DNA of 24,000 nucleotides from an uncultured Candidatus Saccharibacteria bacterium. Its GTDB lineage: Bacteria; Patescibacteriota; Saccharimonadia; Saccharimonadales; 2-12-FULL-41-12. Below, one piece after another: positions 4,703-24,000 of the stretch; within the stretch, counting starts at the first letter, position 1, and each line of letters opens with the position of its first letter. The stretch is taken from assembly GCA_947085495.1 (NCBI GenBank), contig CAMTWJ010000002.1:170969-194968 (forward strand). Direction: 5' to 3'. A program made the translations under genes and the position numbers. The notes below the pieces were generated by a model. That model was not told the origin of the DNA and searched no databases. It saw nothing but the letters and a program-made list of their open reading frames with translations.

Positions 4703-4710
4703 CCTTTGTA

Positions 4711-4835
4711 TGGCTCCGGGGAGAGGGTAAACGCACGTTAATCTGTGCGCCGAGAAAACTCGGGCAACAGACTATCGATCGAACCTCCGACTATCGTCAG
4801 CTAAAGCTGTCGAGTCGGAGAACCAGAACCCTCCC
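4711..4835 (-). other. tRNA-Asn-derived 3'-half copy with a 50-nt insertion in the T-loop (tRNA-like structured element or att-site scar)
   Basis: Plus-strand 4711-4728 is identical to 4881-4898 (18 nt: acceptor 3' strand, CCA and T-stem 3' half). Plus-strand 4779-4791 is identical to 4899-4911 (13 nt: T-stem 5' half and TTCGA). In the real tRNA these 31 nt are contiguous; here they are split by 4729-4778. No matching 5' acceptor strand, D arm or anticodon arm is present. A palindromic hairpin at 4785-4820 sequesters the T-stem copy. The element is bracketed by two terminators. Confidence 0.5.
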
Positions 4836-4880
4836 AAAAAGAAATAGGTCGGGTGACAACTAAAGTTATCTTCCGACCTA
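4836..4880 (-). terminator. Terminator-like hairpin immediately 3' of tRNA-Asn
   Basis: The reverse strand reads TAGGTCGG-(20-nt loop)-CCGACCTA followed by TTTCTTTTT. Confidence 0.5.
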
Positions 4881-4955
4881 TGGCTCCGGGGAGAGGGTTC
4901 GAACCTCCGACCTGGTGATTAACAGTCACTCGCTCTACCACTGAGCTACCCCGGA
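4881..4955 (-). tRNA. tRNA-Asn (anticodon GUU), CCA encoded
   Basis: The reverse strand reads TCCGGGGTAGCTCAGTGGTAGAGCGAGTGACTGTTAATCACCAGGTCGGAGGTTCGAACCCTCTCCCCGGAGCCA. It folds as a cloverleaf: 7-bp acceptor, GCTC/GAGC D stem, anticodon loop CTGTTAA, T arm GGAGG-TTCGAAC-CCTCT, and discriminator G73. Confidence 0.95.
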
Positions 4956-7619: not shown

Positions 7620-8213
7620 CTACTGAGCATCGTTGCTGGTGTAGCCACCAAATTCATTTTCTGCAGGGGTGCAGCTGTTCCACAGTCCCCTATTTTGCTC
7701 ACGAGCTTCGACTTGAAGTGCCCGAAATTCATCGAGCTTTTGGAATGGAAAGCTGACATAGGCAAAGCCATAGCCATTTTTGATAATCTCGGCATTCACC
7801 AGTCTGCCATCTGGCAGATATACATAGCGCAGCAAGCGGTTGTATCTGTCTCGGTTTTGGTTGGTTGGGTCAGCATCTAGGCGGAGCTCTTGGTTGCCTA
7901 TCAAGTCTTTTGTGTACTGTGCCGCTGCTTGGCCAAAACACTGGATGGCTTTACGAGGATCATGTGTTTCGGGTGTATCAACACCGATAAACCGTACTTT
8001 TTCAGTGGTACCGTTCATGTTTACGGACACGGTATCGCCATCGCTAAACTCAACCACTCGATATAGACCCGGGTTTTGAGTCTGTGCCAGCTTTGGAGGC
8101 TCTTCTTGTTTTACAACCGCAAAGCTAATCGCTGTTAGTAGCAGCGCAAATATAAGTCCAGATAATGTCTTCGGTCGTCGTTTTAGATAGCGGAAGCTAC
8201 TTTTGGTACCCAT
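7620..8213 (-). CDS. Thermonuclease (staphylococcal nuclease/SNase family) with N-terminal membrane anchor or signal
   Basis: 197-aa ORF with the N-terminal TM LSGLIFALLLTAISFAVV. The SNase core reads GDTVSV...EKVRFIGVDTPETHDP...RDRYNRLLRYVYLPDGRLVNAEIIKNGYGFAY. TATAAT (rc of 8222-8227) lies 8 nt upstream of the ATG, inside the upstream gene. Confidence 0.85.
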   Translation of the reverse strand: MGTKSSFRYLKRRPKTLSGLIFALLLTAISFAVVKQEEPPKLAQTQNPGLYRVVEFSDGDTVSVNMNGTTEKVRFIGVDTPETHDPRKAIQCFGQAAAQYTKDLIGNQELRLDADPTNQNRDRYNRLLRYVYLPDGRLVNAEIIKNGYGFAYVSFPFQKLDEFRALQVEAREQNRGLWNSCTPAENEFGGYTSNDAQ

Positions 8214-9049
8214 ACCGAAGTATTATACTCGGCTGGTTTTGGCAGTTCGGCCACAAGCTCGGTAAGCTCTTCCTGCGAAGGCAGGTTTTTCTTGAGTTCT
8301 TCAAGGGGCTCTGTAGGGCTAACATGCTGTTCGGTATACTCTGTCCCGGCACTGTTGTACAAGTCAGTGTGCGTAGCAGCCGGTAGTTGTTCTGCTGCTG
8401 GGAGTGCGTACAGCGCCGAGCGAATTGGAGCTATAGAAGTAACATCTTCTAGCGAGTGGATGAATGTCTTGGGAGCTATCTTTTTCCCATAGCCGTATGG
8501 AGTTTTGTCGATGTTAAACAATGTCCCTGCTGGGTATGAAATGCCATTTAGAGACAAAGGCGCAAATGATAAAGCAGTGGGTTCACGGTAGCCCTTCTTA
8601 AAAAATACAAGCTGGCCTTCGTCGTCTACAAACATGCGGTTTTTATTGCTACCGTATTCGTCGTCTGACAGATCACTGCGCTCAATCGCTGCCTTAAAGT
8701 AATATTCAGCCGAAAGACAATTATCTGCTCCCTCTTTTGCCTCGTTATGGTGAAGCTCTATCTTCTCTTCGGCATCTCGAAAAGACGAATCATTAACAAT
8801 GTTTAGCAGATAGCCGCCCATAGTACTTAGTCCATCCATTTGAGGAATGTATTCGTTGGATAGCTCTCGGTCCGGCTTTTCTCGCAGAACAGTACACGCC
8901 CGAGTGTAGGCATTAAAGGTATTAGAGCCGGTCAAGGTTGTGATTGACGGGTGTTTGGAATTGCCTTTGAGCGCATCAAGAATAAAGGGTTCTACAACCC
9001 CCTCCATAGCCTCAACAAGCTGTTCGTGATCTTGAATAAATTCTGACAT
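8183..9049 (-). CDS. Hypothetical protein, paralog 2 of a tandem pair (288 aa)
   Basis: Shares blocks with the 281-aa neighbour: GSNTFNAYTRAC vs GSNAFNAYAQAC, and FVDDEGQLVFFKKGYREPTALSFAPLSLNGISYPAGTLFNI vs YVDDEGETVLFQKSFGEESAMSFKPISVAGIDYAPGTIFSV. No signal peptide and no family recognised. Its 3' end overlaps the nuclease start by 31 nt. Confidence 0.6.
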   Translation of the reverse strand: MSEFIQDHEQLVEAMEGVVEPFILDALKGNSKHPSITTLTGSNTFNAYTRACTVLREKPDRELSNEYIPQMDGLSTMGGYLLNIVNDSSFRDAEEKIELHHNEAKEGADNCLSAEYYFKAAIERSDLSDDEYGSNKNRMFVDDEGQLVFFKKGYREPTALSFAPLSLNGISYPAGTLFNIDKTPYGYGKKIAPKTFIHSLEDVTSIAPIRSALYALPAAEQLPAATHTDLYNSAGTEYTEQHVSPTEPLEELKKNLPSQEELTELVAELPKPAEYNTSVWVPKVASAI

Positions 9050-9055
9050 AAAGTA

Positions 9056-9088
9056 TATATTATACTAAAAAACACTAAAAAAGTCAAT
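9056..9088 (-). promoter_or_regulatory. Consensus sigma70 promoter cassette, copy 1 (TTGACT-17-TATAAT)
   Basis: The reverse strand reads ATTGACTTTTTTAGTGTTTTTTAGTATAATATA, with -35 at rc 9082-9087 and -10 at rc 9059-9064. The ATG at 9049 lies 9 nt after the -10. The cassette is 32/33 identical to 10541-10573. It is preceded on the reverse strand by hairpin AGCGT-AACC-ACGCT (9090-9103) spanning the upstream stop codon. Confidence 0.65.
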
Positions 9089-10105: not shown

Positions 10106-10534
10106 TCAGAGACCTTTCTTTTCTCGGTACACAATCACAGGTATGACCAAGATTGTGAGAGTGAAGACGCTGGCCAGGAAAAGGCCCTCTATTTCGTCAC
10201 TCTTGATCATGATCAGCTTGTTCTCCAAGTCCTTCTTGTTGAAGAAGGAGTAGCTGATGACCAGGTCATGTAGCAGCACCAAAAGTGCTACCGCAAGCCA
10301 GGCTGCAGCGATGTACTCGAAAAAGCCGAGATCTTGGAACAGTCCATTGTTCCCGGTGAGCTGGCTGTATAGCCAAGAACTACCTACCAGCTGAGTTATA
10401 AAGCTCAGTCCGGCTGCGAGGAGTAGAACGATAGTACGTTCAGCTGTATCTTTATCAAAGAAGTTCACTGTTGTATCCTTCGGTCGAGGTTTCCACTTTG
10501 TTAAGGTGTTAAGGAGAAAATGTTTTCTCAACAA
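10106..10534 (-). CDS. Hypothetical multi-pass membrane protein (142 aa, TTG start)
   Basis: ORF with about three hydrophobic helices (IVLLLAAGLSFITQLV, YIAAAWLAVALLVLL, LFLASVFTLTILVIPVIV). The only in-frame start near the promoter is TTG at 10534, 9 nt after the -10. The start assignment is uncertain. Confidence 0.5.
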   Translation of the reverse strand: MLRKHFLLNTLTKWKPRPKDTTVNFFDKDTAERTIVLLLAAGLSFITQLVGSSWLYSQLTGNNGLFQDLGFFEYIAAAWLAVALLVLLHDLVISYSFFNKKDLENKLIMIKSDEIEGLFLASVFTLTILVIPVIVYREKKGL

Positions 10535-10540
10535 AACTAA

Positions 10541-10573
10541 TATATTATACTAAAAAACACCAAAAAAGTCAAT
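10541..10573 (-). promoter_or_regulatory. Consensus sigma70 promoter cassette, copy 2 (TTGACT-17-TATAAT)
   Basis: The reverse strand reads ATTGACTTTTTTGGTGTTTTTTAGTATAATATA, with a single mismatch to copy 1. It is preceded on the reverse strand by an interrupted hairpin (10578-10607). Confidence 0.65.
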
Positions 10574-13137: not shown

Positions 13138-13180
13138 GATATAGCACGGCTCTTGTGTGACTCGGGGTGGGTCTGTTAAA

Positions 13181-13453
13181 ATGCTAAGAGTAATGACTAA
13201 AGCCGCCGACACTTCGACGACTGAACGAGATCGAGACCGGGCAAACAAAGCTCGACGATTGTTTTTTACAAACCTGTTTGACTTGAGCTGGCGCATGATG
13301 AGCGCAATGCTTTTGCCAATACTTATAGGTCTTTATATCGATTCAGTTGTCGGACGAGGGCAAGCATTTGCACTCACTGGGTTCGTGGTTGGCATGATCC
13401 TAGGGGCATTAGTCTTACGAAGCGTAGTAATTAAGCTATCGAAGGGACAATAA
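13181..13453 (+). CDS. AtpZ/AtpI-like small membrane protein preceding the ATP synthase operon
   Basis: It sits immediately upstream of atpB. It has two TM helices (WRMMSAMLLPILIGLYI and AFALTGFVVGMILGALVL), as in the AtpZ/AtpI family. The start is ambiguous between 13157 (GTG), 13181 and 13193. Confidence 0.6.
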   Translation: MLRVMTKAADTSTTERDRDRANKARRLFFTNLFDLSWRMMSAMLLPILIGLYIDSVVGRGQAFALTGFVVGMILGALVLRSVVIKLSKGQ

Positions 13454-13455
13454 GT

Positions 13456-14244
13456 TTGAGATTTCTGTTTGCAGACGATGGTCCGCATATTGTAATCGCC
13501 CCAGAAAAGTTGTTTGAAGTTGGGGGCTACCCCATCACGAACTCAATGATCTATGGCTGGCTTTGTGCCACCCTGATAATTGTTGGCTTTTACCTTGCAC
13601 GCCGAGCGATCAAGCTGGGTGGTAACAAGGGTATTTCGCAACTGCTCGACGTAGGCACCGAATTTATCGTAGGACTACTCGAAAACACCTTGGGCAGCCG
13701 TAAGATGGCCGTAAAATATGCGCCAATCTTTGCCAGCATGTTCTTCTTTATCATGTTTAGCAATTGGCTCGGGCTACTGCCTGGTGTGGGCCCAGCGATT
13801 GAATATAACGGCAGTGCACTCTTTAGAGCCTTTACCGCAGACCTGAACGCTACCATAGCTATGGCATTGTTTGGCATGGTGCTGGTGCAAGTCTTGGCAA
13901 TTAAAGAAAACGGGCCAAAAGGGCATGTAAAACACTACTTCCCCCTAAAAGCTACCAACCCCCTTACCTACTTGATCGGAAGTTTTGAAATATTTACCGA
14001 GTTTACTCGTTTGCTAAGCCTTGGGCTTCGACTTTTCCTAAACGTAGCGATTGGTGAAGTGTTGATATCTGTTGCCAGCTACCTGGGCGGAACTGTTGCA
14101 GCGCCTATTGCGGCCCTACCGTTTACCTTACTTGAGATTTTTGTTGGCGCCCTTCAGGCGTATATTTTTGTCGTACTTTGTGCAGCGTACTTAGCAGCAA
14201 CCACTGCTGGGCACGGTGATGATCATCAGGAAGCGAAAGCATAA
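13456..14244 (+). CDS. atpB: F-type ATP synthase Fo subunit a
   Basis: 262-aa polytopic ORF with a TTG start. The conserved arginine region is RLLSLGLRLFLNVAIGE, and the C-terminal helix carries QAYIFVVL. Confidence 0.92.
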   Translation: MRFLFADDGPHIVIAPEKLFEVGGYPITNSMIYGWLCATLIIVGFYLARRAIKLGGNKGISQLLDVGTEFIVGLLENTLGSRKMAVKYAPIFASMFFFIMFSNWLGLLPGVGPAIEYNGSALFRAFTADLNATIAMALFGMVLVQVLAIKENGPKGHVKHYFPLKATNPLTYLIGSFEIFTEFTRLLSLGLRLFLNVAIGEVLISVASYLGGTVAAPIAALPFTLLEIFVGALQAYIFVVLCAAYLAATTAGHGDDHQEAKA

Positions 14245-14295
14245 CTGGTATGAATAAAGTAATTAATAATAAGAAGTAAAACATAAGGAGTTACT

Positions 14296-14526
14296 ATGGA
14301 TTTACTAGCAGAAACAGTTAACACAGCGGTACTTGCCAAGGGTATTATCATCGGTTTTGGTGGTTTGGGCCCAGCAATCGCTTTAGGAATTATGGGTGCA
14401 GCTTACATGAACGCTGTGAGCCGTAACCCTGAGAGTGCAAAGTTCTTGAGCACCCTGTTCATCTTTGTTGGTATGGCTGAATTCTTTGGAATCGTAGCCA
14501 TCGGTGCATTCTTTATCGTTAAATAA
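14296..14526 (+). CDS. atpE: F-type ATP synthase Fo subunit c
   Basis: 76-aa hairpin protein. The loop reads RNPES and the ion-binding carboxylate lies in FVGMAEFFGIV. A strong SD (TAAGGAG) lies upstream. Confidence 0.93.
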   Translation: MDLLAETVNTAVLAKGIIIGFGGLGPAIALGIMGAAYMNAVSRNPESAKFLSTLFIFVGMAEFFGIVAIGAFFIVK

Positions 14527-14537
14527 CAAGGAAATAC

Positions 14538-15080
14538 ATGATTAACGTTTTACTAACACAATTTGCGAGCGAAACAGCCGAAGAATCTTCGGGCTTTGCT
14601 GCATTGGGCTTTGACCCTAAAGCGTTCTTGATCCAGCTGATCACGTTCCTTTTTGTCTTCTATATATTGAAGCGCTACGTGTTTGGTCGTGTAGTGGACT
14701 TGCTGGAAAAGCGTCGCATGACCATCGAAGATGGCGTGCGTCTGACTACCGAGATTCGAGAGCAAAAGGAAAAGCTCGACAAAGAAGTCGAGAAGATCCA
14801 AAAAGACGCCCGCAAGCACGCAGACGAGGTAATTAGCGAGGCGCAGGCGCAGTCTGGCGTAATCTTGAAGGAAGCTGAAGAATCAGCCCAAGCCAAGATT
14901 GAGATCTTGCTAACCGAAGCTGGTAAGAAGATTGAGCAAGAGACACAACGTGCTCGAGCAGCTGTCGAAAAAGAAGCGGTTGAGCTCGTAATTAAAGCGA
15001 CTGAAGTGATTGCTCGTGAGAAGATTGATACCAAGAAAGACCAGAGCTTGATAGCTAACGCTCTAAAGGAGCAAGCATAA
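14538..15080 (+). CDS. atpF: F-type ATP synthase Fo subunit b
   Basis: 180 aa with a single N-terminal TM helix followed by a long charged coiled coil (KEKLDKEVEKIQKDARKHADEVISEAQ...). It occupies the canonical operon position. Confidence 0.88.
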   Translation: MINVLLTQFASETAEESSGFAALGFDPKAFLIQLITFLFVFYILKRYVFGRVVDLLEKRRMTIEDGVRLTTEIREQKEKLDKEVEKIQKDARKHADEVISEAQAQSGVILKEAEESAQAKIEILLTEAGKKIEQETQRARAAVEKEAVELVIKATEVIAREKIDTKKDQSLIANALKEQA

Positions 15081-15081
15081 G

Positions 15082-15474
15082 ATGAGTACTTATTCTCGTA
15101 CTGCCCTAGCCGATTTTGTAGCAAGCAAGATGAACGGCTCTCCAAAGAAGGTTGCCCAGCAAGTTGCTGCCTATTTGGTAGAAACTGGCCACACCAGCGA
15201 CCTGAGCTCACTCGAACGAGATGTGCTGACTATTTTGGACGAGCAAAAAGGGATTGTTGAATTGACCGTAACCAGTGCGCATGCACTTACGGCAGTCGAG
15301 AAGAAACAGATTGAAAAGCTTGTAAAGAGTATTCACCAAGACGTGAAGAAAATTGTAATAAATGAGCAAATTGACACAGATGTAATTGGTGGAATCCGTT
15401 TGGAATTCCCCCACCAAAGTCTGGATTTGACCGTAAGAAGTAAATTGAACCAGCTAAGGTCACTGACCAGTTAA
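15082..15474 (+). CDS. atpH: F-type ATP synthase F1 subunit delta (OSCP), unusually short
   Basis: 130 aa in the operon position between b and alpha. The C-terminal OSCP-like motif is VIGGIRLEFPHQSLDLTVRSKLNQL. Confidence 0.8.
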   Translation: MSTYSRTALADFVASKMNGSPKKVAQQVAAYLVETGHTSDLSSLERDVLTILDEQKGIVELTVTSAHALTAVEKKQIEKLVKSIHQDVKKIVINEQIDTDVIGGIRLEFPHQSLDLTVRSKLNQLRSLTS

Positions 15475-15486
15475 GGAAAGGAAATA

Positions 15487-17022
15487 ATGAGCGACGTATC
15501 CGTAAAAGAACTATCGGCTGACATCAAAAAAGCCATTGATCAGCTAAAAACCCGTCCAGAGGTTGAAAATGTAGGCATTGTAACTCGTGCCGCAGATGGT
15601 ATCGCTTGGATATATGGTCTTCGTGGCTGTGGATCCAACGAAGTGCTAGAGATTGAAGGAGTAAATGGCGAAACTGTATCAGCTTTTGCTCTAAACCTAA
15701 GTGAAAACGAAATTGGTGCCGTGCTGCTTGGTAGCGACCAATTAGTACAAGCAGGTGGCAAGGTAAAACTAACTGGACGATCTTTGGACGTGCCAGTTGG
15801 CCCAGAACTTGTTGGCCGTGTGGTTGACCCACTTGGTCGCCCACTCGACGGTAAAGGCCCGATTAAGGCTAAAGAACGTGGCCCGATTGAGCAGAATGCT
15901 CCAGGTGTGCTTGCCCGAAAGAGTGTGCACGAGCCACTTATGACTGGTTTGACCGCTATTGACGCTATGGTACCTATCGGGCGTGGTCAGCGTGAGCTGA
16001 TTATTGGTGACCGACAAACTGGTAAAACAGCGGTTGCAATTGACACGATGATTAACCAGCACCGACAAAAAACCGGTGTGGTAAACATCTATGTTGCGAT
16101 TGGCCAAAAAGCTAGTAAGGTTGCCCGACTCGTAGAGCGATTGCAGCGTGAAGGCGTGATGGATCAGACAATTATTGTTGCTACGTCAGCTGCCGACCCT
16201 GCAAGTTTGCAGTATCTTGCACCGTACGCAGGAACTGCCATGGGTGAGTATTTCCGAGATTACAAACAGCACGCTTTGATCATCTATGATGACCTTTCAA
16301 AGCACGCAGCTGCATACCGACAGATGAGTTTGTTGCTTCGACGTCCACCAGGACGAGAGGCTTTCCCTGGTGATGTGTTTTATCTTCACTCACGACTTTT
16401 GGAACGATCTGCAAAACTATCTGACGAAATGGGCGGTGGTAGCTTAACTGCCTTGCCGATCATCGAAACTCAGGCTGGTGACATTAGCGCATATATCCCA
16501 ACCAACGTGATTTCTATCACAGATGGTCAGATTTTCCTCGAAACAGACTTGTTCTACCAAGGTATTCGACCAGCTATTTCGGTTGGTACATCTGTATCTC
16601 GTGTAGGTGGCTCTGCTCAGACCAAAGCGGTTAAGAGTGTGGCCGGAAGTCTTCGACTTAACTTGGCGCAGTTCCGTGAACTTGCTGCCTTTGCGCAGTT
16701 TGGTAGCGACCTTGATGCCGAAACCAAACACCGAATTGACCGTGGTCAACGACTTACCGAACTTTTGAAGCAACCTCAGTACAGCCCGTACTCTGTCTGG
16801 GAACAGACTGCAATGTTGATGGCAGCTACCGAAGGTGCTTTTGACAAAGTGAGCGTCAATGACGTCCAGAAGTGTAAAGAAGCGTTCTTGAGCGATCTAA
16901 AACGAAAGCACAAGAAAGAAATGGAAACACTGAACAAGGGTGACAAGCCAGATGACAAGCTTAAAAAAGCTATCTTGGCAGTTGCCGAAACTGTAAGCAA
17001 AGACTACAAGGAACAGAAGTAG
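15487..17022 (+). CDS. atpA: F-type ATP synthase F1 subunit alpha
   Basis: 511 aa with Walker [20 protein letters not shown], and the typical alpha-subunit segment [24 protein letters not shown]. Confidence 0.97.
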
Positions 17023-17026
17023 ACAA

Positions 17027-17896
17027 ATGTCCAACATTACCTCGTTAAAACGCCGAATCGGCAGTGTCAAAAACACCAAGCAGCTTACCAAAGCTATGCA
17101 ATTGGTGGCTGCTAGTAAGATGCGCCGGGCTCAGACCAGCGCTCTTGCCTCTCGACCGTATCGAGAAAATGCATTTAATATTTTTGGTCGCATGAGTGAG
17201 ATTAGTGATGTTGCGACGCATCCATTGTTTTCTCGCCGAACTGTTAAGAACAAGCTGAGCATTGTGATTACGAGTGACCGGGGTTTGGCTGGGGCATACG
17301 ACAGTAATGTCCTAAAAGTTTTGGCAGCTAGTCTAGCAGACAGCAAGAAGAACCACGCTAATGCCCAGGTGATTACTATTGGCCGGCAAGCTGGCCGATT
17401 TGTGTCACGCTTGCAAGGCGTAAAAGTAGTTGGTGCTTACCCAATGTTTGGCAAAGAGCCGACTCCTGCAGATATTCGCCCAATTTTGACCACGGCACTT
17501 GAGCTGTTTGAGAGCGGCGAAGTAGATGCAGTTGAGGTGATCTATACCGAATTTATTTCGAACATTACCCAGACACCAAAATCTATCCAGGTACTCCCTG
17601 CCCCGCATTCGGAGGACGATAAAATTTCTGAGCTGGAGACAGCTATTTTTGAGCCGTCAATCGAAGCGATTGTAGAAGACGCTACGCTTCGCTTGATCGA
17701 GGCACAACTGTGGCAGGCACTTCTTGAGAGTCTGGCCAGTGAGCATTCTATGCGTATGATCGCTATGAAGAATGCAACCGACAATGCATCAGACATAATT
17801 GATGATCTAACACTAGAATTTAACACCGCACGGCAAGCAGCTATCACGCAGGAAATTGCCGAAATTGCCGGTGGTGCAGCGGCGGTAGGAGCATAA
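17027..17896 (+). CDS. atpG: F-type ATP synthase F1 subunit gamma
   Basis: 289 aa. The N-terminal segment is IKRRIGSVKNTKQLTKAMQLVAASKMRRAQ, and the C-terminal segment is ASEHSMRMIAMKNATDNA...LEFNTARQAAITQEIAEI. Confidence 0.95.
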   Translation: MSNITSLKRRIGSVKNTKQLTKAMQLVAASKMRRAQTSALASRPYRENAFNIFGRMSEISDVATHPLFSRRTVKNKLSIVITSDRGLAGAYDSNVLKVLAASLADSKKNHANAQVITIGRQAGRFVSRLQGVKVVGAYPMFGKEPTPADIRPILTTALELFESGEVDAVEVIYTEFISNITQTPKSIQVLPAPHSEDDKISELETAIFEPSIEAIVEDATLRLIEAQLWQALLESLASEHSMRMIAMKNATDNASDIIDDLTLEFNTARQAAITQEIAEIAGGAAAVGA

Positions 17897-18336
17897 TGAG
17901 TCACGAACAGCTACCAGAAGATTTCTCGATGGAAAAACAGCTTGAGGACGCAGCTGCTTTGGCAGCAGCGAGGCTCGTCATAAAAGGTGTAGTTGAAGAT
18001 AAGGATTTATCTCAAGCAGACTTTACATGGGGACTTGCTCGTGAGGATATAATTCTTGCGAGAACTAAAATTGCCGGTATGGCTCTTGGGCTTGACGACT
18101 TACATCATATATCTCCCGAAGTGGTCGACATGACTATGAATGTTATCTTTGATGACCTTGCCGACAAAGATCTTCCAAGGGACGTTTTAGATGTTAAGCC
18201 AGACGAAAAACTTGATCCAAGAGAACGAGAAATCCCAATTTTGCCGGACAACTTTGAAAAACTCTTGGCCGAGGATTTTAAGCGTTTTCAAAGTTGGTGG
18301 GATAAACCAGATGCATTTGATATAGAGTTGTTGTAA
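17896..18336 (+). CDS. Acidic hypothetical protein inserted between atpG and atpD (146 aa)
   Basis: Its ATG overlaps the atpG stop (TAATG at 17894-17898). It ends 15 nt before the atpD start. There is no TM helix, and it is rich in D/E. No family recognised. Confidence 0.6.
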   Translation: MSHEQLPEDFSMEKQLEDAAALAAARLVIKGVVEDKDLSQADFTWGLAREDIILARTKIAGMALGLDDLHHISPEVVDMTMNVIFDDLADKDLPRDVLDVKPDEKLDPREREIPILPDNFEKLLAEDFKRFQSWWDKPDAFDIELL

Positions 18337-19733
<1,397 letters not shown>

Positions 19734-19734
<1 letters not shown>

Positions 19735-20162
19735 TGATACGACTTCGACTCATTACTCTCAGCGGCGTGCACTTTGACGAAGATGTGCATGAAGCAATGA
19801 TCCCAACCCAGGCCGGAGATATTGCTATCTATGGAGGTCACGCTTCCCTGCTCAGCGTAGCTGCACCTGGAGTGGTGGCTATTCGAAAAGACCGAAAAGT
19901 CAAAGACGCTGACCGAGAATTTGTGGCTATCTATGGTGGAACAGTAGAAGTTCTAGACAATGTCATCACGGTTCTTGTAGATGAAGTTGACGACACGAGT
20001 GAAGTAAATGAAGCTGAAGCCCAAAAGGCGCACCAGCGAGCGCTAGAAATGAAAGATAAAGCCAAAGATGCTCTGTCGCTTCAGGAGGCTCAGAAGCTCA
20101 TCGACCGCTCAAGTGTTCGCTTGAAACTAGCTGGTCTCAAAAAACACAGCCATCGGCGCTAG
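19734..20162 (+). CDS. atpC: F-type ATP synthase F1 subunit epsilon
   Basis: 142 aa. Its start overlaps the atpD stop (TAATG). The fold pattern is an N-terminal beta-sandwich and a C-terminal helical region (EAEAQKAHQRALEMKDKA). Confidence 0.88.
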
Positions 20163-20186: not shown

Positions 20187-20205
20187 ACACTACATGTGGT
20201 AGTGT
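20187..20205 (+). terminator. Hairpin downstream of atpC (weak terminator candidate)
   Basis: ACACTAC-ATGTG-GTAGTGT is a 7-bp stem. An alternative pairing is ATGTGG/CCACAT. No strong U-tract follows. Confidence 0.3.
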
Positions 20206-20253
20206 TGCCACATATTTGACTGAGTGCTAAAATGAGGGCTTCGTTTAAAAAAT

Positions 20254-21318
20254 ATGTTAGATAAATTCGAAAAAGGACCAGAAATAATTATGTCAGGAGC
20301 AGAGTCTACGCCCATGCAAGCCGAACAAGAATTAGAAAATATAAAAATTGAACGGATTGCCCCAGAAGGATTGGGCTTTGGCCATGGCAGCATATCGGTA
20401 CAAGATCGACTTGATTCAGGTGACCTTGACCAGGCAACCCTAGACGTAGTTGAGGGTATTGCGCACTCTGACTCGGCAATGGTTGTTGTAGATGCAGATG
20501 ACGATGGATGTCCTGATGGACGAAAAGCGGCAGCTATGATCATGGGACGTGATCGTCACACTGCGCCAAGTCATAAACACCGACCAAAGGTGTTTGGCGG
20601 TGGAGCGACTATGGCAACAGCAGCCTTGATCGGTAATGGAGCCGTTGACCCGAGCACAGAAACAATCTCGGAAGCGTTTGAATACGGTATTCACCGTCTT
20701 GAAAACGTTGGTCTTAACTTTGGAGGCCACTCTGCGGTAAAGACAGCAGATGGCAAGTCAGGCTGCGGTGCAATTGATGAAGCGCCAAATATTATCAAAA
20801 ACATTGTACGTTATAGAGAAGAAATAAAAGGTGTCATTGAGACTCTTATAGACCCAGAAGCAGACAAAGCAGAGCTAGACGGGATAATGGAGACAGCAAT
20901 AGACAATTTTGCAGCTGTGAGCGAGACAGAGTCATCGCAAGAACCTACAGAAGGTCAACAGCTAAGCGAGTACAAAGGTGGCTCTATCCTCTCCAAATTC
21001 CATCACAGAGAAAAGAAAATTGCCGAACTTGAAGGCGAGCACAAAGAAGTTGCGATTGTTATGAATATTGATGTTGCTGGTATGACCTTTGACCAAGATC
21101 GTGTGCGAGAAGAAACCAACGACGAGGCACAGGTTTTTGCAGTAGATGTGCCACGCATGAAGGATATTGCCGATGGAATGTTTGAGTACGATCATGACAA
21201 AAAGCAAGCACTTGTTTCTATGCTTATGTACTCACTCGGTACAGCTGCTACGCTTACCAAGGGTGACTTGCCGGTAGACGTTGTCTATCAAGGCCAAGAC
21301 CGCTACATAACTCTTTAG
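20254..21318 (+). CDS. Hypothetical protein (354 aa) with CxDxR ... H ... CGA motif arrangement
   Basis: Intact ORF, with an alternative start at M13 (20290). It contains DDDGCPDGR, VFGGGA and GGHSAVKTADGKSGCGAIDE. This order loosely parallels the beta-carbonic-anhydrase zinc-site motifs (CxDxR, HxxCG), but the H-C spacing is longer. No confident family assignment. Confidence 0.55.
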   Translation: MLDKFEKGPEIIMSGAESTPMQAEQELENIKIERIAPEGLGFGHGSISVQDRLDSGDLDQATLDVVEGIAHSDSAMVVVDADDDGCPDGRKAAAMIMGRDRHTAPSHKHRPKVFGGGATMATAALIGNGAVDPSTETISEAFEYGIHRLENVGLNFGGHSAVKTADGKSGCGAIDEAPNIIKNIVRYREEIKGVIETLIDPEADKAELDGIMETAIDNFAAVSETESSQEPTEGQQLSEYKGGSILSKFHHREKKIAELEGEHKEVAIVMNIDVAGMTFDQDRVREETNDEAQVFAVDVPRMKDIADGMFEYDHDKKQALVSMLMYSLGTAATLTKGDLPVDVVYQGQDRYITL

Positions 21319-24000
21319 ATCTTTCCGTCTAGTAAATCTTTTTCAAATTGTTTGGTGCCAGCAATGTCTGGCGAATAGCTTGTTGTATTTGGAAAATCTA
21401 CTGCTTTTACCTTTGCCCAAACGGCTTCTATAAGTTTTTCTAGACGGTCAATCTCTTCCTGAGAAGGTTTGTAGGTTCGGACAAGCTCTTTGTCTGACTT
21501 CGCTTCAACGTATACAATCTGTCCTTTGATGTCCTTGAACTTACTAAAACGGGGATGATTTTGCGCCAGGAGTGCGTAAAAGATAAGCTGCGTTTTTTGG
21601 CGCCAGGCTTTTACGCTTAGTGTCTTGCTGGTTGTGTCAAAGCTGGGCAATATGGAGCCAGTCTTGTAGTCGACGATCGTCAATGTATTATCGTCTATAT
21701 CAATACGATCAAGTTTGCCGTCGATCACTGCGCTGGACAAGCGAACATCGGTTAGGCGTTGCTCGGGCTTGCTGCCTTTAGGCAGCGTGTATATTTCAAA
21801 TAGCTGCGAGAGCATTTGCTGGCCATGCGCTTTGTATCGTTTAAATTCGTTACTTGGTAGATGTTCTTTTTCGAGAGTATCCACATACTCATCAATGATA
21901 TCGGACAGCTTAAACTTGTCGGCATTTACATCTTTTTGAGCTAACTCCAGAGCTGCATGGGCAGCCGTACCATGAGCAAGCGTGGCAGTCTTGGCTTCGG
22001 GCAAGTACAGTACATTTCGCTCAAAGAAATATTGTGGCCCCCCTCGGGTAACATCTAAGAAGTTAAGCAAGTTCGTAACGTTGATGGAAAACCTTTCGAG
22101 CCGGGCTTCGAGTAGAACTTTTTCTTTTGCTTCTGATAAATGAGGCCACCGAAGCCCCTCTTCTAAGATATGAACAGCTTCTTTTTCGGTTGGTTTGTCT
22201 ATCGTACTCGTTTTTGGAATCGCAGCATGCAATAGTGGCGTGGCCAGCACCTCGTTATTGGCATGGTCAAAGCTGTAGCTTGTCGTAATGAGAGTGTGCT
22301 TTGCTCGAGTAGCAGCTACATAGAGCAAGCGGATATAGTCATCATCGGTTTCGAGTGGCGGCTGCAAGGGCAAGTTGGCTGGCGGTTTGCGGCCACCACT
22401 TTTCGGTTTCCAGTTGTCTTCGACCGCATCAATAATGTACACGTTATCAAACTCCAGCCCTTTGGCTTTGTGGATACTATAGAGCTCTACCGCATGTTCG
22501 TCGCTGACAAATGGAGATTCGTCGGTGATCCCCTTTTCGTTTTCTTGGTTGAGCTGGATAAAGTGCAATAGATCTTTGAGACTTGGGTGAATGTCGACAG
22601 AGAAATCGTTCACAAGGTGTCGAAGCAATTGAAGTGCAGAAAGCGTCTGGAGATATTCTCCGCTAATACGCTGTTCGCTGACAAAGTATTTTTGGATAGG
22701 GCTGGTTATTGGTTCTCCCGGGCGCAAGCCGAGTACGTACTCGATCGTAAGCGCCAATGGCTGGTGAGAAGATTTGCCAGACAGCCAAAGTAACCAGTCA
22801 GCAATGTCTTTGGTCTCTGAGTTTTGTTTGATCGCAAGCAGCCAATCCTTTGTCTTGTAAGCGTCTATAGCAATGCTCCAAAGTGTTTCGGCAGACAATT
22901 CCCACATTGGGTGTCGAAGCAAAGATGCGAGATGGGCATTGACCTGATCTTTGTTGCCCTCATGGATACCAGAAAGAATCTTACATAGTAGAATTGCCTG
23001 CTGAATAGCTTCGTATTCTAAGATGTTATTTCGCTTTTCGTAGCGAACAGGCACATCACTGCGTAGCAATAACGCTGCAAGGGCTTGCAAGCTATCATGA
23101 CTACGTGCCAGCACGGCAATTGATTCTCCGGGCTTTGCACTTCGCTGTCTTTTGATCTGTTCTACGACACCGTGCAATTGCTGCTCTCTTGTTGCGTATT
23201 GCATATGGCTAATATCCCCGGCACGTTTTTCTCGTGCCACAACAAGCCTTTTGCTCAAGGTCGTGTCTCTGGTTACAAGGCGATCTATAGCTTGTTCGAT
23301 GATCTTACCAGAGGCATCTAAGATTGCTTGATTGGAGCGATAATTTTCCTCCAAAACTATTTTGGTTGTTTTGCCATAGGTTCGGTCAAAAAAGAGCATG
23401 TTATTGAGCTCTGCTCCATTAAACCCAAAGATCGATTGGTCGTCGTCACCCACGGCCATAATGTTTGGCTGGCCGCTGGCGCTTTCGTGGTCTGCGACCA
23501 AATGAGCCAAGCGAAGTTGTGCAGCGTTGCTGTCTTGAAACTCATCAATTAATACAAACTGATATTGCTCCTGTACGTCCGCCCGAAGCTCGGGGTTCTG
23601 CTCGAGCTGAGACAAAACCTCTACCAACATGTCCGAATAGTCGTAGTAGCCCTGGCTATGCATGGTTTCTCGATAGCTTTGGTACACATCTGCGAGTTCT
23701 AGCCACCATTTGTTGCGAGACCGCTCGTCCCACATGCCTTTTTTGCCATCGACTGCTTTTATCCACTTGCCTTTCCATTTGCTAGTATTCGCTGCTTTGC
23801 CTGTATCTAGATCCTTGTTTACTGCAAAAGCGAGGCTTTCTTGCAGCACTGTTTTGAGTGAAATTAGCGGAGCGATGGTAGCATCGATTGGTTGGTCGGG
23901 TAAGTTGTCTATCTCTGCCTGAAGATCACTTAGGCGTTTATGGCTTATGGTCTTGCTAAGGATATCCACGATCTGTGGCTCGACAGCTTCGATATATGCC
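21315..24000 (-). CDS. UvrD/Rep-family (SF1) helicase fused to a C-terminal RecB-like PD-(D/E)XK nuclease domain; N-terminus lies beyond the right window edge
   Basis: The reading frame stays open upstream of the track's GTG 'start' through to position 24000, and Walker A is missing from the window.
- Helicase motifs present: DEFQD (II), VGDDDQSIF (III), ENYRS (IV), SIHKAKGLEFDNVYII (V), YVAATRAKHTL (VI).
- C-terminal nuclease motifs: GTAAHAALE, LDRIDIDDNTLTIVDYKTG, QLIFYALL. Confidence 0.85.
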   Translation of the reverse strand, partial: AYIEAVEPQIVDILSKTISHKRLSDLQAEIDNLPDQPIDATIAPLISLKTVLQESLAFAVNKDLDTGKAANTSKWKGKWIKAVDGKKGMWDERSRNKWWLELADVYQSYRETMHSQGYYDYSDMLVEVLSQLEQNPELRADVQEQYQFVLIDEFQDSNAAQLRLAHLVADHESASGQPNIMAVGDDDQSIFGFNGAELNNMLFFDRTYGKTTKIVLEENYRSNQAILDASGKIIEQAIDRLVTRDTTLSKRLVVAREKRAGDISHMQYATREQQLHGVVEQIKRQRSAKPGESIAVLARSHDSLQALAALLLRSDVPVRYEKRNNILEYEAIQQAILLCKILSGIHEGNKDQVNAHLASLLRHPMWELSAETLWSIAIDAYKTKDWLLAIKQNSETKDIADWLLWLSGKSSHQPLALTIEYVLGLRPGEPITSPIQKYFVSEQRISGEYLQTLSALQLLRHLVNDFSVDIHPSLKDLLHFIQLNQENEKGITDESPFVSDEHAVELYSIHKAKGLEFDNVYIIDAVEDNWKPKSGGRKPPANLPLQPPLETDDDYIRLLYVAATRAKHTLITTSYSFDHANNEVLATPLLHAAIPKTSTIDKPTEKEAVHILEEGLRWPHLSEAKEKVLLEARLERFSINVTNLLNFLDVTRGGPQYFFERNVLYLPEAKTATLAHGTAAHAALELAQKDVNADKFKLSDIIDEYVDTLEKEHLPSNEFKRYKAHGQQMLSQLFEIYTLPKGSKPEQRLTDVRLSSAVIDGKLDRIDIDDNTLTIVDYKTGSILPSFDTTSKTLSVKAWRQKTQLIFYALLAQNHPRFSKFKDIKGQIVYVEAKSDKELVRTYKPSQEEIDRLEKLIEAVWAKVKAVDFPNTTSYSPDIAGTKQFEKDLLDGKI

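Follow-up and report, generated by a model that had tools for sequence, protein, structure and literature searches.

Why should a bacterium interrupt one of its most conserved operons with a gene that belongs to none of the known ATP synthase families? Few gene arrangements are as conserved in bacteria as the F1Fo operons, in which the gene for the gamma subunit is as a rule followed directly by that for the beta subunit. The stretch analysed here, 24,000 nucleotides (nt) of contig CAMTWJ010000002.1 and hereafter the window, carries a complete F1Fo operon on its forward strand (13157-20162), and the relatives of its atpG place the host within Candidatus Saccharibacteria (TM7, candidate phyla radiation). 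Between atpG (gamma, 17027-17896, stop codon TAA at 17894-17896) and atpD (beta, 18352-19734) lies an open reading frame (ORF) of 146 amino acids on the same strand, ORF146 (17896-18336, with ATG at 17896-17898 and TAA at 18334-18336). The initial annotation of this DNA had suggested that it might encode an undescribed accessory or regulatory subunit, or else represent a selfish insertion. We ask whether ORF146 is a real gene, how it evolves, how common such genes are and what it may do; all the evidence is computational and comes from metagenome assemblies.

The ORF146 family

Homologues were sought in 5.8 billion protein clusters by word-indexed search and, exhaustively, in 1.84 billion representatives by HMMER, as well as by a profile re-search and by tblastn on the fetched loci. 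The whole search set yielded seven distinct family proteins, ORF146 included. Identity to ORF146 is 82% for P0002, about 45% for P0005 and P0008, 43% for the ORF of locus L042 (picked up by tblastn of the fetched loci), 38% for P0003 and 37% for P0004; two further long repeat proteins among the matches were compositional false hits. All seven genes are flanked by atpG and atpD, the overlap being TAATG or ATGA, their carriers form a small clade of Saccharibacteria, and the family is monophyletic on the atpD tree. No copy outside the atpG|atpD junction was found in any genomic context, phage or plasmid searched.

The indels of the family alignment are all in-frame, and 17-20 of its columns are invariant. 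The ratio of nonsynonymous to synonymous divergence (dN/dS), computed by the Nei-Gojobori method, is 0.13 between the window and L001, 0.08 between L087 and L088, and 0.23-0.26 between either of the latter and L042. Constraint is uneven along the protein: in the comparison of the window with L001, the variable central part (about residues 28-90; 17977-18165, 72-77% nucleotide identity to L001) has a dN/dS of 0.21, against 0.013 in the conserved C-terminal third (18166-18333), which bears LPR, D107, D127 and a disordered tail with the invariant F141-D142 (..FDIEL). Because the reading frame is conserved in seven lineages and dN/dS is well below 1, ORF146 is, judged by its sequence conservation, a genuine protein-coding gene of a tiny clade-restricted family under purifying selection. 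In relatives the ORF is intact and conserved at the protein level, and a synteny survey of atpG-atpD junctions, which the initial annotation had proposed, found all seven members syntenic and 78 of the 156 junctions occupied.

What kind of protein does it encode? The product is strongly acidic and without a transmembrane segment, as had been noticed at the outset: it contains 35 aspartate and glutamate against 17 lysine and arginine residues, its isoelectric point (pI) is 4.33, and its maximum Kyte-Doolittle hydropathy over 19 residues is 1.05. An AlphaFold2 (AF2) model built from six sequences has a mean predicted local distance difference test score (pLDDT) of 83.8 and a predicted template modelling (TM) score of 0.78, with the elements in the order helix 12-36, strand 45-48, helices 49-63, 66-69 and 74-89, strand 112-115 and helix 117-134. 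Residues 140-146 fall below a pLDDT of 50, as disordered segments do, yet bear the invariant F141-D142. The predicted fold is thus a compact domain of four helices and two strands, without a known structural relative. Foldseek of the model against PDB and BFVD returned nothing significant (best E 0.49, TM score about 0.25), and its top matches, short-chain helical cytokines with a superficially similar order of helices and strands, were dropped for lack of significance. No family was matched in Pfam-A and NCBIfam at E up to 1, ATP synthase subunit models included, in agreement with the initial impression that the product resembles no such subunit; a sequence profile run against PDB returned nothing at E up to 10, PADLOC gave 0 matches, and PHROG gave a best E of 0.08, to single members only. 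No source checked gives the family a name, and a literature search brought up no account of ORFs at the atpG|atpD junction of Saccharibacteria.

These searches set aside a series of specific identities. ORF146 matches no canonical F1Fo subunit (alpha, beta, gamma, delta, epsilon, a, b, c or AtpI) in Pfam or NCBIfam, and neither Pfam nor PDB profiles identify it as zeta (DUF1476), IF1 (IATP) or an inhibitor of the epsilon C-terminal-domain type. It is not a detached domain making good a truncated delta or epsilon, as subunit length does not vary with occupancy: epsilon, gamma, beta, delta and b are equally long with or without an interstitial ORF, and alpha differs by 4 residues. It matches neither PF05635 nor PF22296 and is accordingly not a 23S_rRNA_IVP/bAvd protein. 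The 24 kb contain no template repeat and no reverse transcriptase that would mark it as the target of a diversity-generating retroelement, and its single context, with no repeats and no mobility gene, speaks against a transposable element or integron cassette. A place in an anti-phage defence or phage family finds no backing in PADLOC or PHROG, and its neighbours, which are atpG and atpD in all seven lineages, with no adjacent toxin, speak against a toxin-antitoxin or immunity pair.

The layout proposed in the initial annotation was exact to the nucleotide. The stop codon of atpG shares its last A with the ATG of ORF146 (TAATG, 17894-17898), a signal of translational coupling, and the Shine-Dalgarno-like motif AGGAG (17887-17891) lies inside the 3' end of atpG, 4 nt before the ORF146 start. 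Among the homologous loci, L001, L087 and L088 have the TAATG overlap and keep AGGAG; L042, L083 and L082 have ATGA and do not keep the motif. Downstream, the spacer of 15 nt (18337-18351) holds the atpD Shine-Dalgarno AAGGA (18340-18344), 7 nt before the atpD ATG at 18352. The translation initiation region of atpD is unstructured (RNA fold z-scores of at least 0.26), so that atpD can initiate independently; coupling gated by structure, with the atpD Shine-Dalgarno sequestered in a hairpin, finds no support on the same ground. Scans of the sequence between atpG and atpD found no terminator-like site and no Rfam RNA, and promoter-like matches between the genes occur only at chance level, leaving ORF146 without transcription signals of its own. 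It had been claimed that the ORF must be co-transcribed with the atp genes. The overlap and the missing terminator are consistent with co-transcription, short of proof.

In composition, the gene stands apart from its neighbours. Its GC content is 42.4% against 48% in the F1 genes, and the codons AGA, AGG, ATA and TTA, whose excess had first been seen by eye, account for 11 of its 146 codons against 9 of 1402 in atpA, atpG, atpD and atpC together (Fisher p=3e-7). The rate is 7.5 per 100 codons, about 12-fold the 0.6-0.7 of each of these four genes. The skew in GC and rare codons is seen in all six homologous alleles, so it belongs to the gene itself and does not signal a recent import. The separate ancestry that the codons had seemed to hint at holds only insofar as the alleles recombine independently of their flanks (see below); the composition itself is a stable family trait, with no sign of a fresh import.

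Allele exchange and the occupancy of F1 junctions

How does a gene under constraint come to differ so much between close relatives? Between the window and L087 the proteins of atpA, atpG and atpD are 99.4%, 99.0% and 100% identical, and the flanking genes show about 93% DNA identity with a synonymous divergence (dS) of 0.25-0.35. The two ORF146 alleles, in contrast, share 45% of their protein and about 50% of their DNA sequence. Identity collapses at 17885 and recovers at 18347, which are the limits of ORF146, and atpD is back at 93-97% from 18347 onward. Even neutral sequence could not diverge so far at the divergence of the flanks, so that an ORF146 allele must have been replaced. The grouping of loci points the same way. 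By their flanks the window, L001 and L087 belong together at 92-94% identity, with L042 at 79-85%, and atpG of the window is 92-94% identical in nucleotides to both L001 and L087 up to the ORF146 boundary. By the ORF, the window and L001 form one type (82%) and L087, L088 and L042 another (60-83%), and the trees built from the ORF and from the flanks conflict. Mosaicism is seen in the window allele too: its first 27 nt are of the L087/L088 type and the remainder is of the L001 type; within the latter comparison the ends of the ORF are 88-100% identical in DNA to L001, against the 72-77% of the centre.

Assembly chimeras are an unlikely cause, since the sequences come from independent ENA, JGI and Logan assemblies. 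Five independent contigs underlie the allele diversity seen within the species cluster; a metagenome scan with atpG added one further close relative only, a duplicate of L003. Whole or partial ORF146 alleles thus move between related strains, and we infer that they do so by homologous recombination via the conserved atpG and atpD, which would serve as upstream and downstream recombination arms. No direct or inverted repeats bound ORF146, the 24-kb window holds no second or template-like copy, and no domain of a transposase, integrase, reverse transcriptase or endonuclease was found in ORF146 or the other ORFs of the window.

Is the occupied junction of the window an isolated case? We surveyed 156 atpG|atpD junctions, drawn from genomes (79 loci), metagenomes (80 loci) and the loci retrieved with the homologues, and counted a junction as occupied where the spacer measured at least 120 nt. 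Spacers are shorter than 30 nt in 52 cases, 30-100 nt long in 26 and at least 120 nt long in 78. In 65 of the 78 long spacers, one ORF on the same strand fills 80% or more of the length, and the longest stop-free stretch takes up a median of 98% of these spacers when they are read forward and of 56% in reverse. Most of the starts overlap the atpG stop, at -4 (ATGA) in 33, at -1 (TAATG-type) in 14 and at -8 (an 8-nt overlap) in 11 of the 78 occupied junctions, and the occupant often overlaps the atpD start with its end.

The occupants themselves fall into about 50 mutually unrelated BLAST clusters, mostly singletons. Among 122 distinct interstitial ORFs from three junctions, Pfam recognised five 23S_rRNA_IVP/bAvd proteins (best E 1.4e-34), one HXXEE and one Transgly_assoc; two or three matches to atpA fragments were artefacts. 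The 23S_rRNA_IVP/bAvd-like proteins sit at atpG|atpD in another clade (L024, L066, L067, L071, L074 and L165), which includes a Nanosynbacter metagenome-assembled genome. The ORF146 profile detects no other occupant family (best hidden Markov model (HMM) E 0.23), and hhalign of ORF146 against 97 of roughly 110 occupant clusters gave a probability of at most 4.5%. Alignable pairs of occupants have fewer nonsynonymous than synonymous differences per site (pN < pS), though their synonymous sites are mostly saturated.

Occupancy is concentrated at the boundaries of the F1 genes. It amounts to 35 of 153 junctions at atpA|atpG, 78 of 156-157 at atpG|atpD and 24 of 118 at atpD|atpC, against 1 of 90 at atpF|atpH and 1 of 103 at atpH|atpA (Fisher p=4e-23 for the F1 junctions versus the latter two pooled, kinship ignored). 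The one atpF|atpH spacer of at least 120 nt in 90 belongs to L001, where a 54-residue ORF (L001:234-398) lies between the two genes; it is absent from the window, the F1 proteins of which are 98-99% identical. Occupancy of the three F1 junctions is correlated (odds ratio 27 and p=2e-8 for atpA|atpG with atpG|atpD, kinship again ignored), and the occupied junctions cluster in a single large atpD clade, the one to which the window belongs. The pattern is nested, atpG|atpD being filled most often, then atpA|atpG, then atpD|atpC, and several loci carry ORFs at all three junctions at once (L010, L016, L044, L057, L079, L109, L127, L134 and others). At each of the three, the occupants are acidic, with a median pI of 4.6-4.9 and 70-90% of values below 5.5; a crude background from flanking ORFs has a median of 9.5 for small and 6.4 for large ones. 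A purine-rich spacer as the source of this acidity was rejected, the enrichment being weak (55% vs 52% purine).

The nearest lineages outside the family differ in the state of their junction. In the sister lineage L004 it is empty, with 24 nt that comprise TTTAATGA-TAAGAAAGGA, that is, start context abutting stop, and the atpD Shine-Dalgarno; the GAAAGGA after its atpG stop is the same as in the window spacer. The stretch L004:4850-4900 reads TTTAATGATAAGAAAGGA, as though the body of an ORF had been precisely deleted, and the empty junction looks like a deletion scar. The next outgroup, L005, has an ORF of 148 residues at the junction, a singleton among 5.8 billion clusters; its single-sequence AF2 model has a pLDDT of 46, at which a comparison of topology with ORF146 is uninformative. 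Taken across the clade, the F1 junctions of this major uncultivated lineage are a hot spot of fast-evolving, coupled and mostly acidic orphan genes, of which ORF146 is a well-supported example: constrained, predicted to be folded and exchanged between strains.

What ORF146 may do

Lineage-specific additions to F1 are known from other organisms. Mitochondrial IF1, alphaproteobacterial zeta and cyanobacterial AtpTheta, like the C-terminal extension of mycobacterial alpha and the C-terminal domain of epsilon, are small, taxon-restricted, non-enzymatic and mutually non-homologous additions to an F1 that is conserved universally. ORF146 is likewise small, restricted, without homologues elsewhere and apparently co-expressed with F1, and by analogy may be a functional parallel; it differs in charge, in operon location and above all in turnover. 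The models searched show no similarity to these add-ons in sequence or fold. The F1 inhibitors known so far are helices of basic or amphipathic character; ORF146, in contrast, is strongly acidic and predicted to be globular, and AtpTheta, with about 48 residues, is unlike it in size too. The genes of zeta, IF1 and AtpTheta are, as far as is known, located outside the atp operon. Each of the add-ons is conserved across its own lineage, whereas ORF146 varies extremely, and sister lineages have unrelated ORFs in its place.

Other comparisons fit in location or in habit. The genes atpI/uncI, atpZ and those of AtpQ/AtpR in N-ATPases are extra non-core ORFs co-transcribed with atp genes, as ORF146 would be; they encode small membrane proteins of recognisable families and stand at the 5' end or within the Fo genes, whereas the product of ORF146 is soluble, its gene separates gamma from beta, and it has no match among these families. 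The 23S_rRNA_IVP/bAvd proteins (PF05635, PF22296), helical bundles of about 120 residues, occupy the same atpG|atpD junction in another clade of Saccharibacteria and are named for their residence inside another highly conserved and highly expressed gene, that for 23S rRNA; the predicted topology of ORF146 adds two short strands, and it has no match to them in Pfam at E up to 1. Phage morons and integron cassettes are also small, mostly orphan cargo between conserved genes, deviant in composition and variable among relatives, and ORF146 has a like skew in composition and a like turnover. ORF146, unlike these, resides in a cellular housekeeping operon and a single context, with no promoter, terminator, attC-like repeats or integrase.

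The reading that we tentatively place first, and would call possible if somewhat short of probable, is that ORF146 encodes an optional, lineage-specific, non-enzymatic binding protein or modulator linked to F1 and no core subunit. Since its start overlaps the atpG stop and it has no transcription signals of its own, the atp mRNA would yield the protein together with gamma, whenever gamma is translated, and atpD would initiate from its own open ribosome-binding site. Its alleles are exchanged among related strains with breakpoints at or inside the ORF and near-identical flanks, and ORF146 is the local member of a fast-turnover, mostly acidic class of interstitial ORFs at atpA|atpG, atpG|atpD and atpD|atpC in one large clade. 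A non-enzymatic binder is suggested by the lack of a catalytic-type motif, the strong acidity and the conserved disordered ..FDIEL tail, as conserved disordered C-terminal tails are of the kind that docks on partners. The partner would be F1, or its assembly or regulation, because the class is confined to F1 boundaries, its members share their acidity, and operon-coupled genes usually serve their complex.

Several observations weigh against such a link to F1. The evidence for a role in the ATP synthase consists of operon position and includes no physical tie to F1. Partners conserved at 99-100% are not expected to tolerate alleles of 45% identity, about 50 unrelated families and frequent absence, and the lengths of the canonical subunits are unchanged by occupancy, so that nothing is compensated. 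Some occupants elsewhere belong to families without an ATP synthase connection (23S_rRNA_IVP/bAvd, HXXEE, Transgly_assoc). Known F1 inhibitors are basic, not acidic; other proteins of the window without a Pfam match are acidic as well (pI 4.6-4.7), and acidity may be a general trait of lineage-specific proteins. The low codon adaptation of ORF146 suggests an abundance below that of the F1 subunits. The junction statistics, finally, were computed without phylogenetic correction. What remains of the accessory or regulatory subunit first proposed is a genuine extra gene of the F1 operon, unlike the known subunits; for a regulatory role the argument is position, and a conventional conserved subunit is disfavoured by the hypervariability, by allele swaps beside F1 proteins that are 99-100% identical and by the unrelated occupants elsewhere.

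The close, main rival of an F1-linked role is an operon passenger of the moron type: a hypervariable accessory gene unrelated to the ATP synthase that rides on the constitutively expressed atp mRNA and uses the highly conserved F1 genes as arms for exchange between lineages. Its role might lie, for example, in conflict between strains or with host or phage, or be that of an acidic binder of the immunity or decoy type. We regard it as somewhat less probable than the F1 link. The sharp-edged allele replacement with an ORF tree at odds with the flanks, the roughly 50 unrelated families with presence and absence varying at shallow depth, the non-ATPase families (23S_rRNA_IVP/bAvd, HXXEE, Transgly_assoc) at junctions elsewhere, the deviant GC and codon usage and the canonical subunits without compensating change all suit a passenger, and small acidic hypervariable proteins are typical of immunity and anti-defence roles. 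A passenger, however, leaves unexplained why atpF|atpH and atpH|atpA are nearly empty and why occupants at three junctions share their acidity; the family is confined to this one junction, no toxin or defence gene is adjacent, and neither PADLOC nor PHROG gave a match. The selfish insertion of the initial annotation fares far worse. A mobile element or a target of a diversity-generating retroelement inserted in the operon would account for an orphan gene of atypical composition and for bAvd-like four-helix proteins at the same junction in other lineages, but the lack of bounding repeats, of a second template-like copy in 24 kb, of any transposase, integrase, reverse transcriptase or endonuclease domain in ORF146 or the window, and of copies or relatives in another genomic context, phage or plasmid largely refutes it, and we consider it very improbable.

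Might the peptide not matter at all? Selection could keep an ORF open and coupled merely so that ribosomes reach atpD, the peptide being a benign by-product of a translated spacer or a young de novo gene. The excess of stop-free sequence on the forward strand (98% against 56%), with overlaps to both neighbours across unrelated sequences, is what such selection would leave; most of these ORFs are orphans, the L005 singleton among them, and low GC, poor codon adaptation and an acidity that fits a product harmless when highly expressed agree with it. The explanation suits the class and fits the ORF146 family poorly, and for ORF146 we hold it to be unlikely. A by-product would hardly show a dN/dS of 0.08-0.26 (0.013 for the C-terminal third), keep W, AR, G, LP, D and FD invariant among proteins of 37-45% identity or yield a confident AF2 model; the ribosome-binding site of atpD is open and independent of upstream translation, and about half of the junctions measure at most 100 nt and one third less than 30 nt, so many Saccharibacteria do without a spacer. 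A further question, compatible with any function, is that of origin: a single ancient accessory gene may stand behind all atpG|atpD occupants, having evolved past detection. Family identity drops to 37% while atpD is still 91% identical, which makes for a very short detection horizon. The occupied junctions cluster in one large atpD clade, occupants are alike in length, acidity and coupling, those of L044 and L057 resemble ORF146 by eye (below threshold), and the sister junction of L004 has the look of a deletion scar. Set against this, the best HMM E of 0.23 and the hhalign maximum of 4.5% to other occupants, together with clearly different families (IVP, membrane proteins) at the same site, make common descent a minority expectation.

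Within the F1-linked reading that we place first, a bolder version can be framed, which we think quite improbable. Hypervariable acidic proteins, exchanged by recombination and docking on F1, could form an undescribed layer on the ATP synthase of this clade, kept under diversifying or balancing selection because the enzyme is a target when the epibiont is in conflict with host, phage or competitors. They could, for example, serve the basic C-terminal domain of epsilon as a decoy, or shield or modulate the F1 head; ORF146, whose predicted fold is without known relatives, would then be the first such protein to be defined. Should the proteins bind F1, they would make up a new class of ATP synthase modulators, unusual in its plasticity, in organisms about whose energy metabolism little is understood. 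Should they not, the junctions would offer a clean natural system in which to study the birth and swapping of genes within essential operons and the use of conserved genes as recombination arms across species. In either case the ORF146 family marks an annotation gap, as automated pipelines would label its members 'hypothetical'.

The operon and other features of the window

The eight canonical genes of the operon are each present separately. An atpI-like gene (13157-13453, PF09527) is followed on the forward strand by atpB (13456-14244), atpE (14296-14526), atpF (14538-15080), atpH (15082-15474) and atpA (15487-17022), all six identified from the ORF list and Pfam and matched by gene calls in L084. 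Gamma is recognised by PF00231 (5.5e-89) and TIGR01146 and beta by TIGR01039 (5e-235). The last operon gene, atpC (epsilon, 19734-20162), is full length with its C-terminal domain. The delta subunit encoded by atpH has 130 residues and matches positions 48-170 of the OSCP profile, its N-terminal part missing; a short delta is general in the surveyed Saccharibacteria (median 131 residues) regardless of interstitial ORFs.

Directly after atpC lies an ORF of 354 residues (20254-21318), acidic (pI 4.6) and without a Pfam or NCBIfam match, to which the best promoter-like site of the region (20205-20233, 10 of 12 matches) belongs; L083 has a positional counterpart of 333 residues. On the minus strand, 21315-23969 encodes an AddA-like protein of 884 residues with UvrD-helicase and PD-(D/E)XK parts. 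Its Pfam match begins at UvrD position 139, and the N-terminal ATP-binding part has seemingly been lost to a stop near 23970-24000; the counterpart in L083 has at least 1068 residues. Farther upstream, an exact 20-nt direct repeat occurs at 4709-4728 and 4879-4898, the second copy overlapping the end of a tRNA gene (4884-4955, minus strand), and could be an att-like duplication. A repeat of 43 nt (88% identical; 9046-9088 and 10531-10573) directly precedes two ORFs of the minus strand that lack Pfam matches (8183-9049 and 10106-10534), for which it may be a shared promoter or leader.

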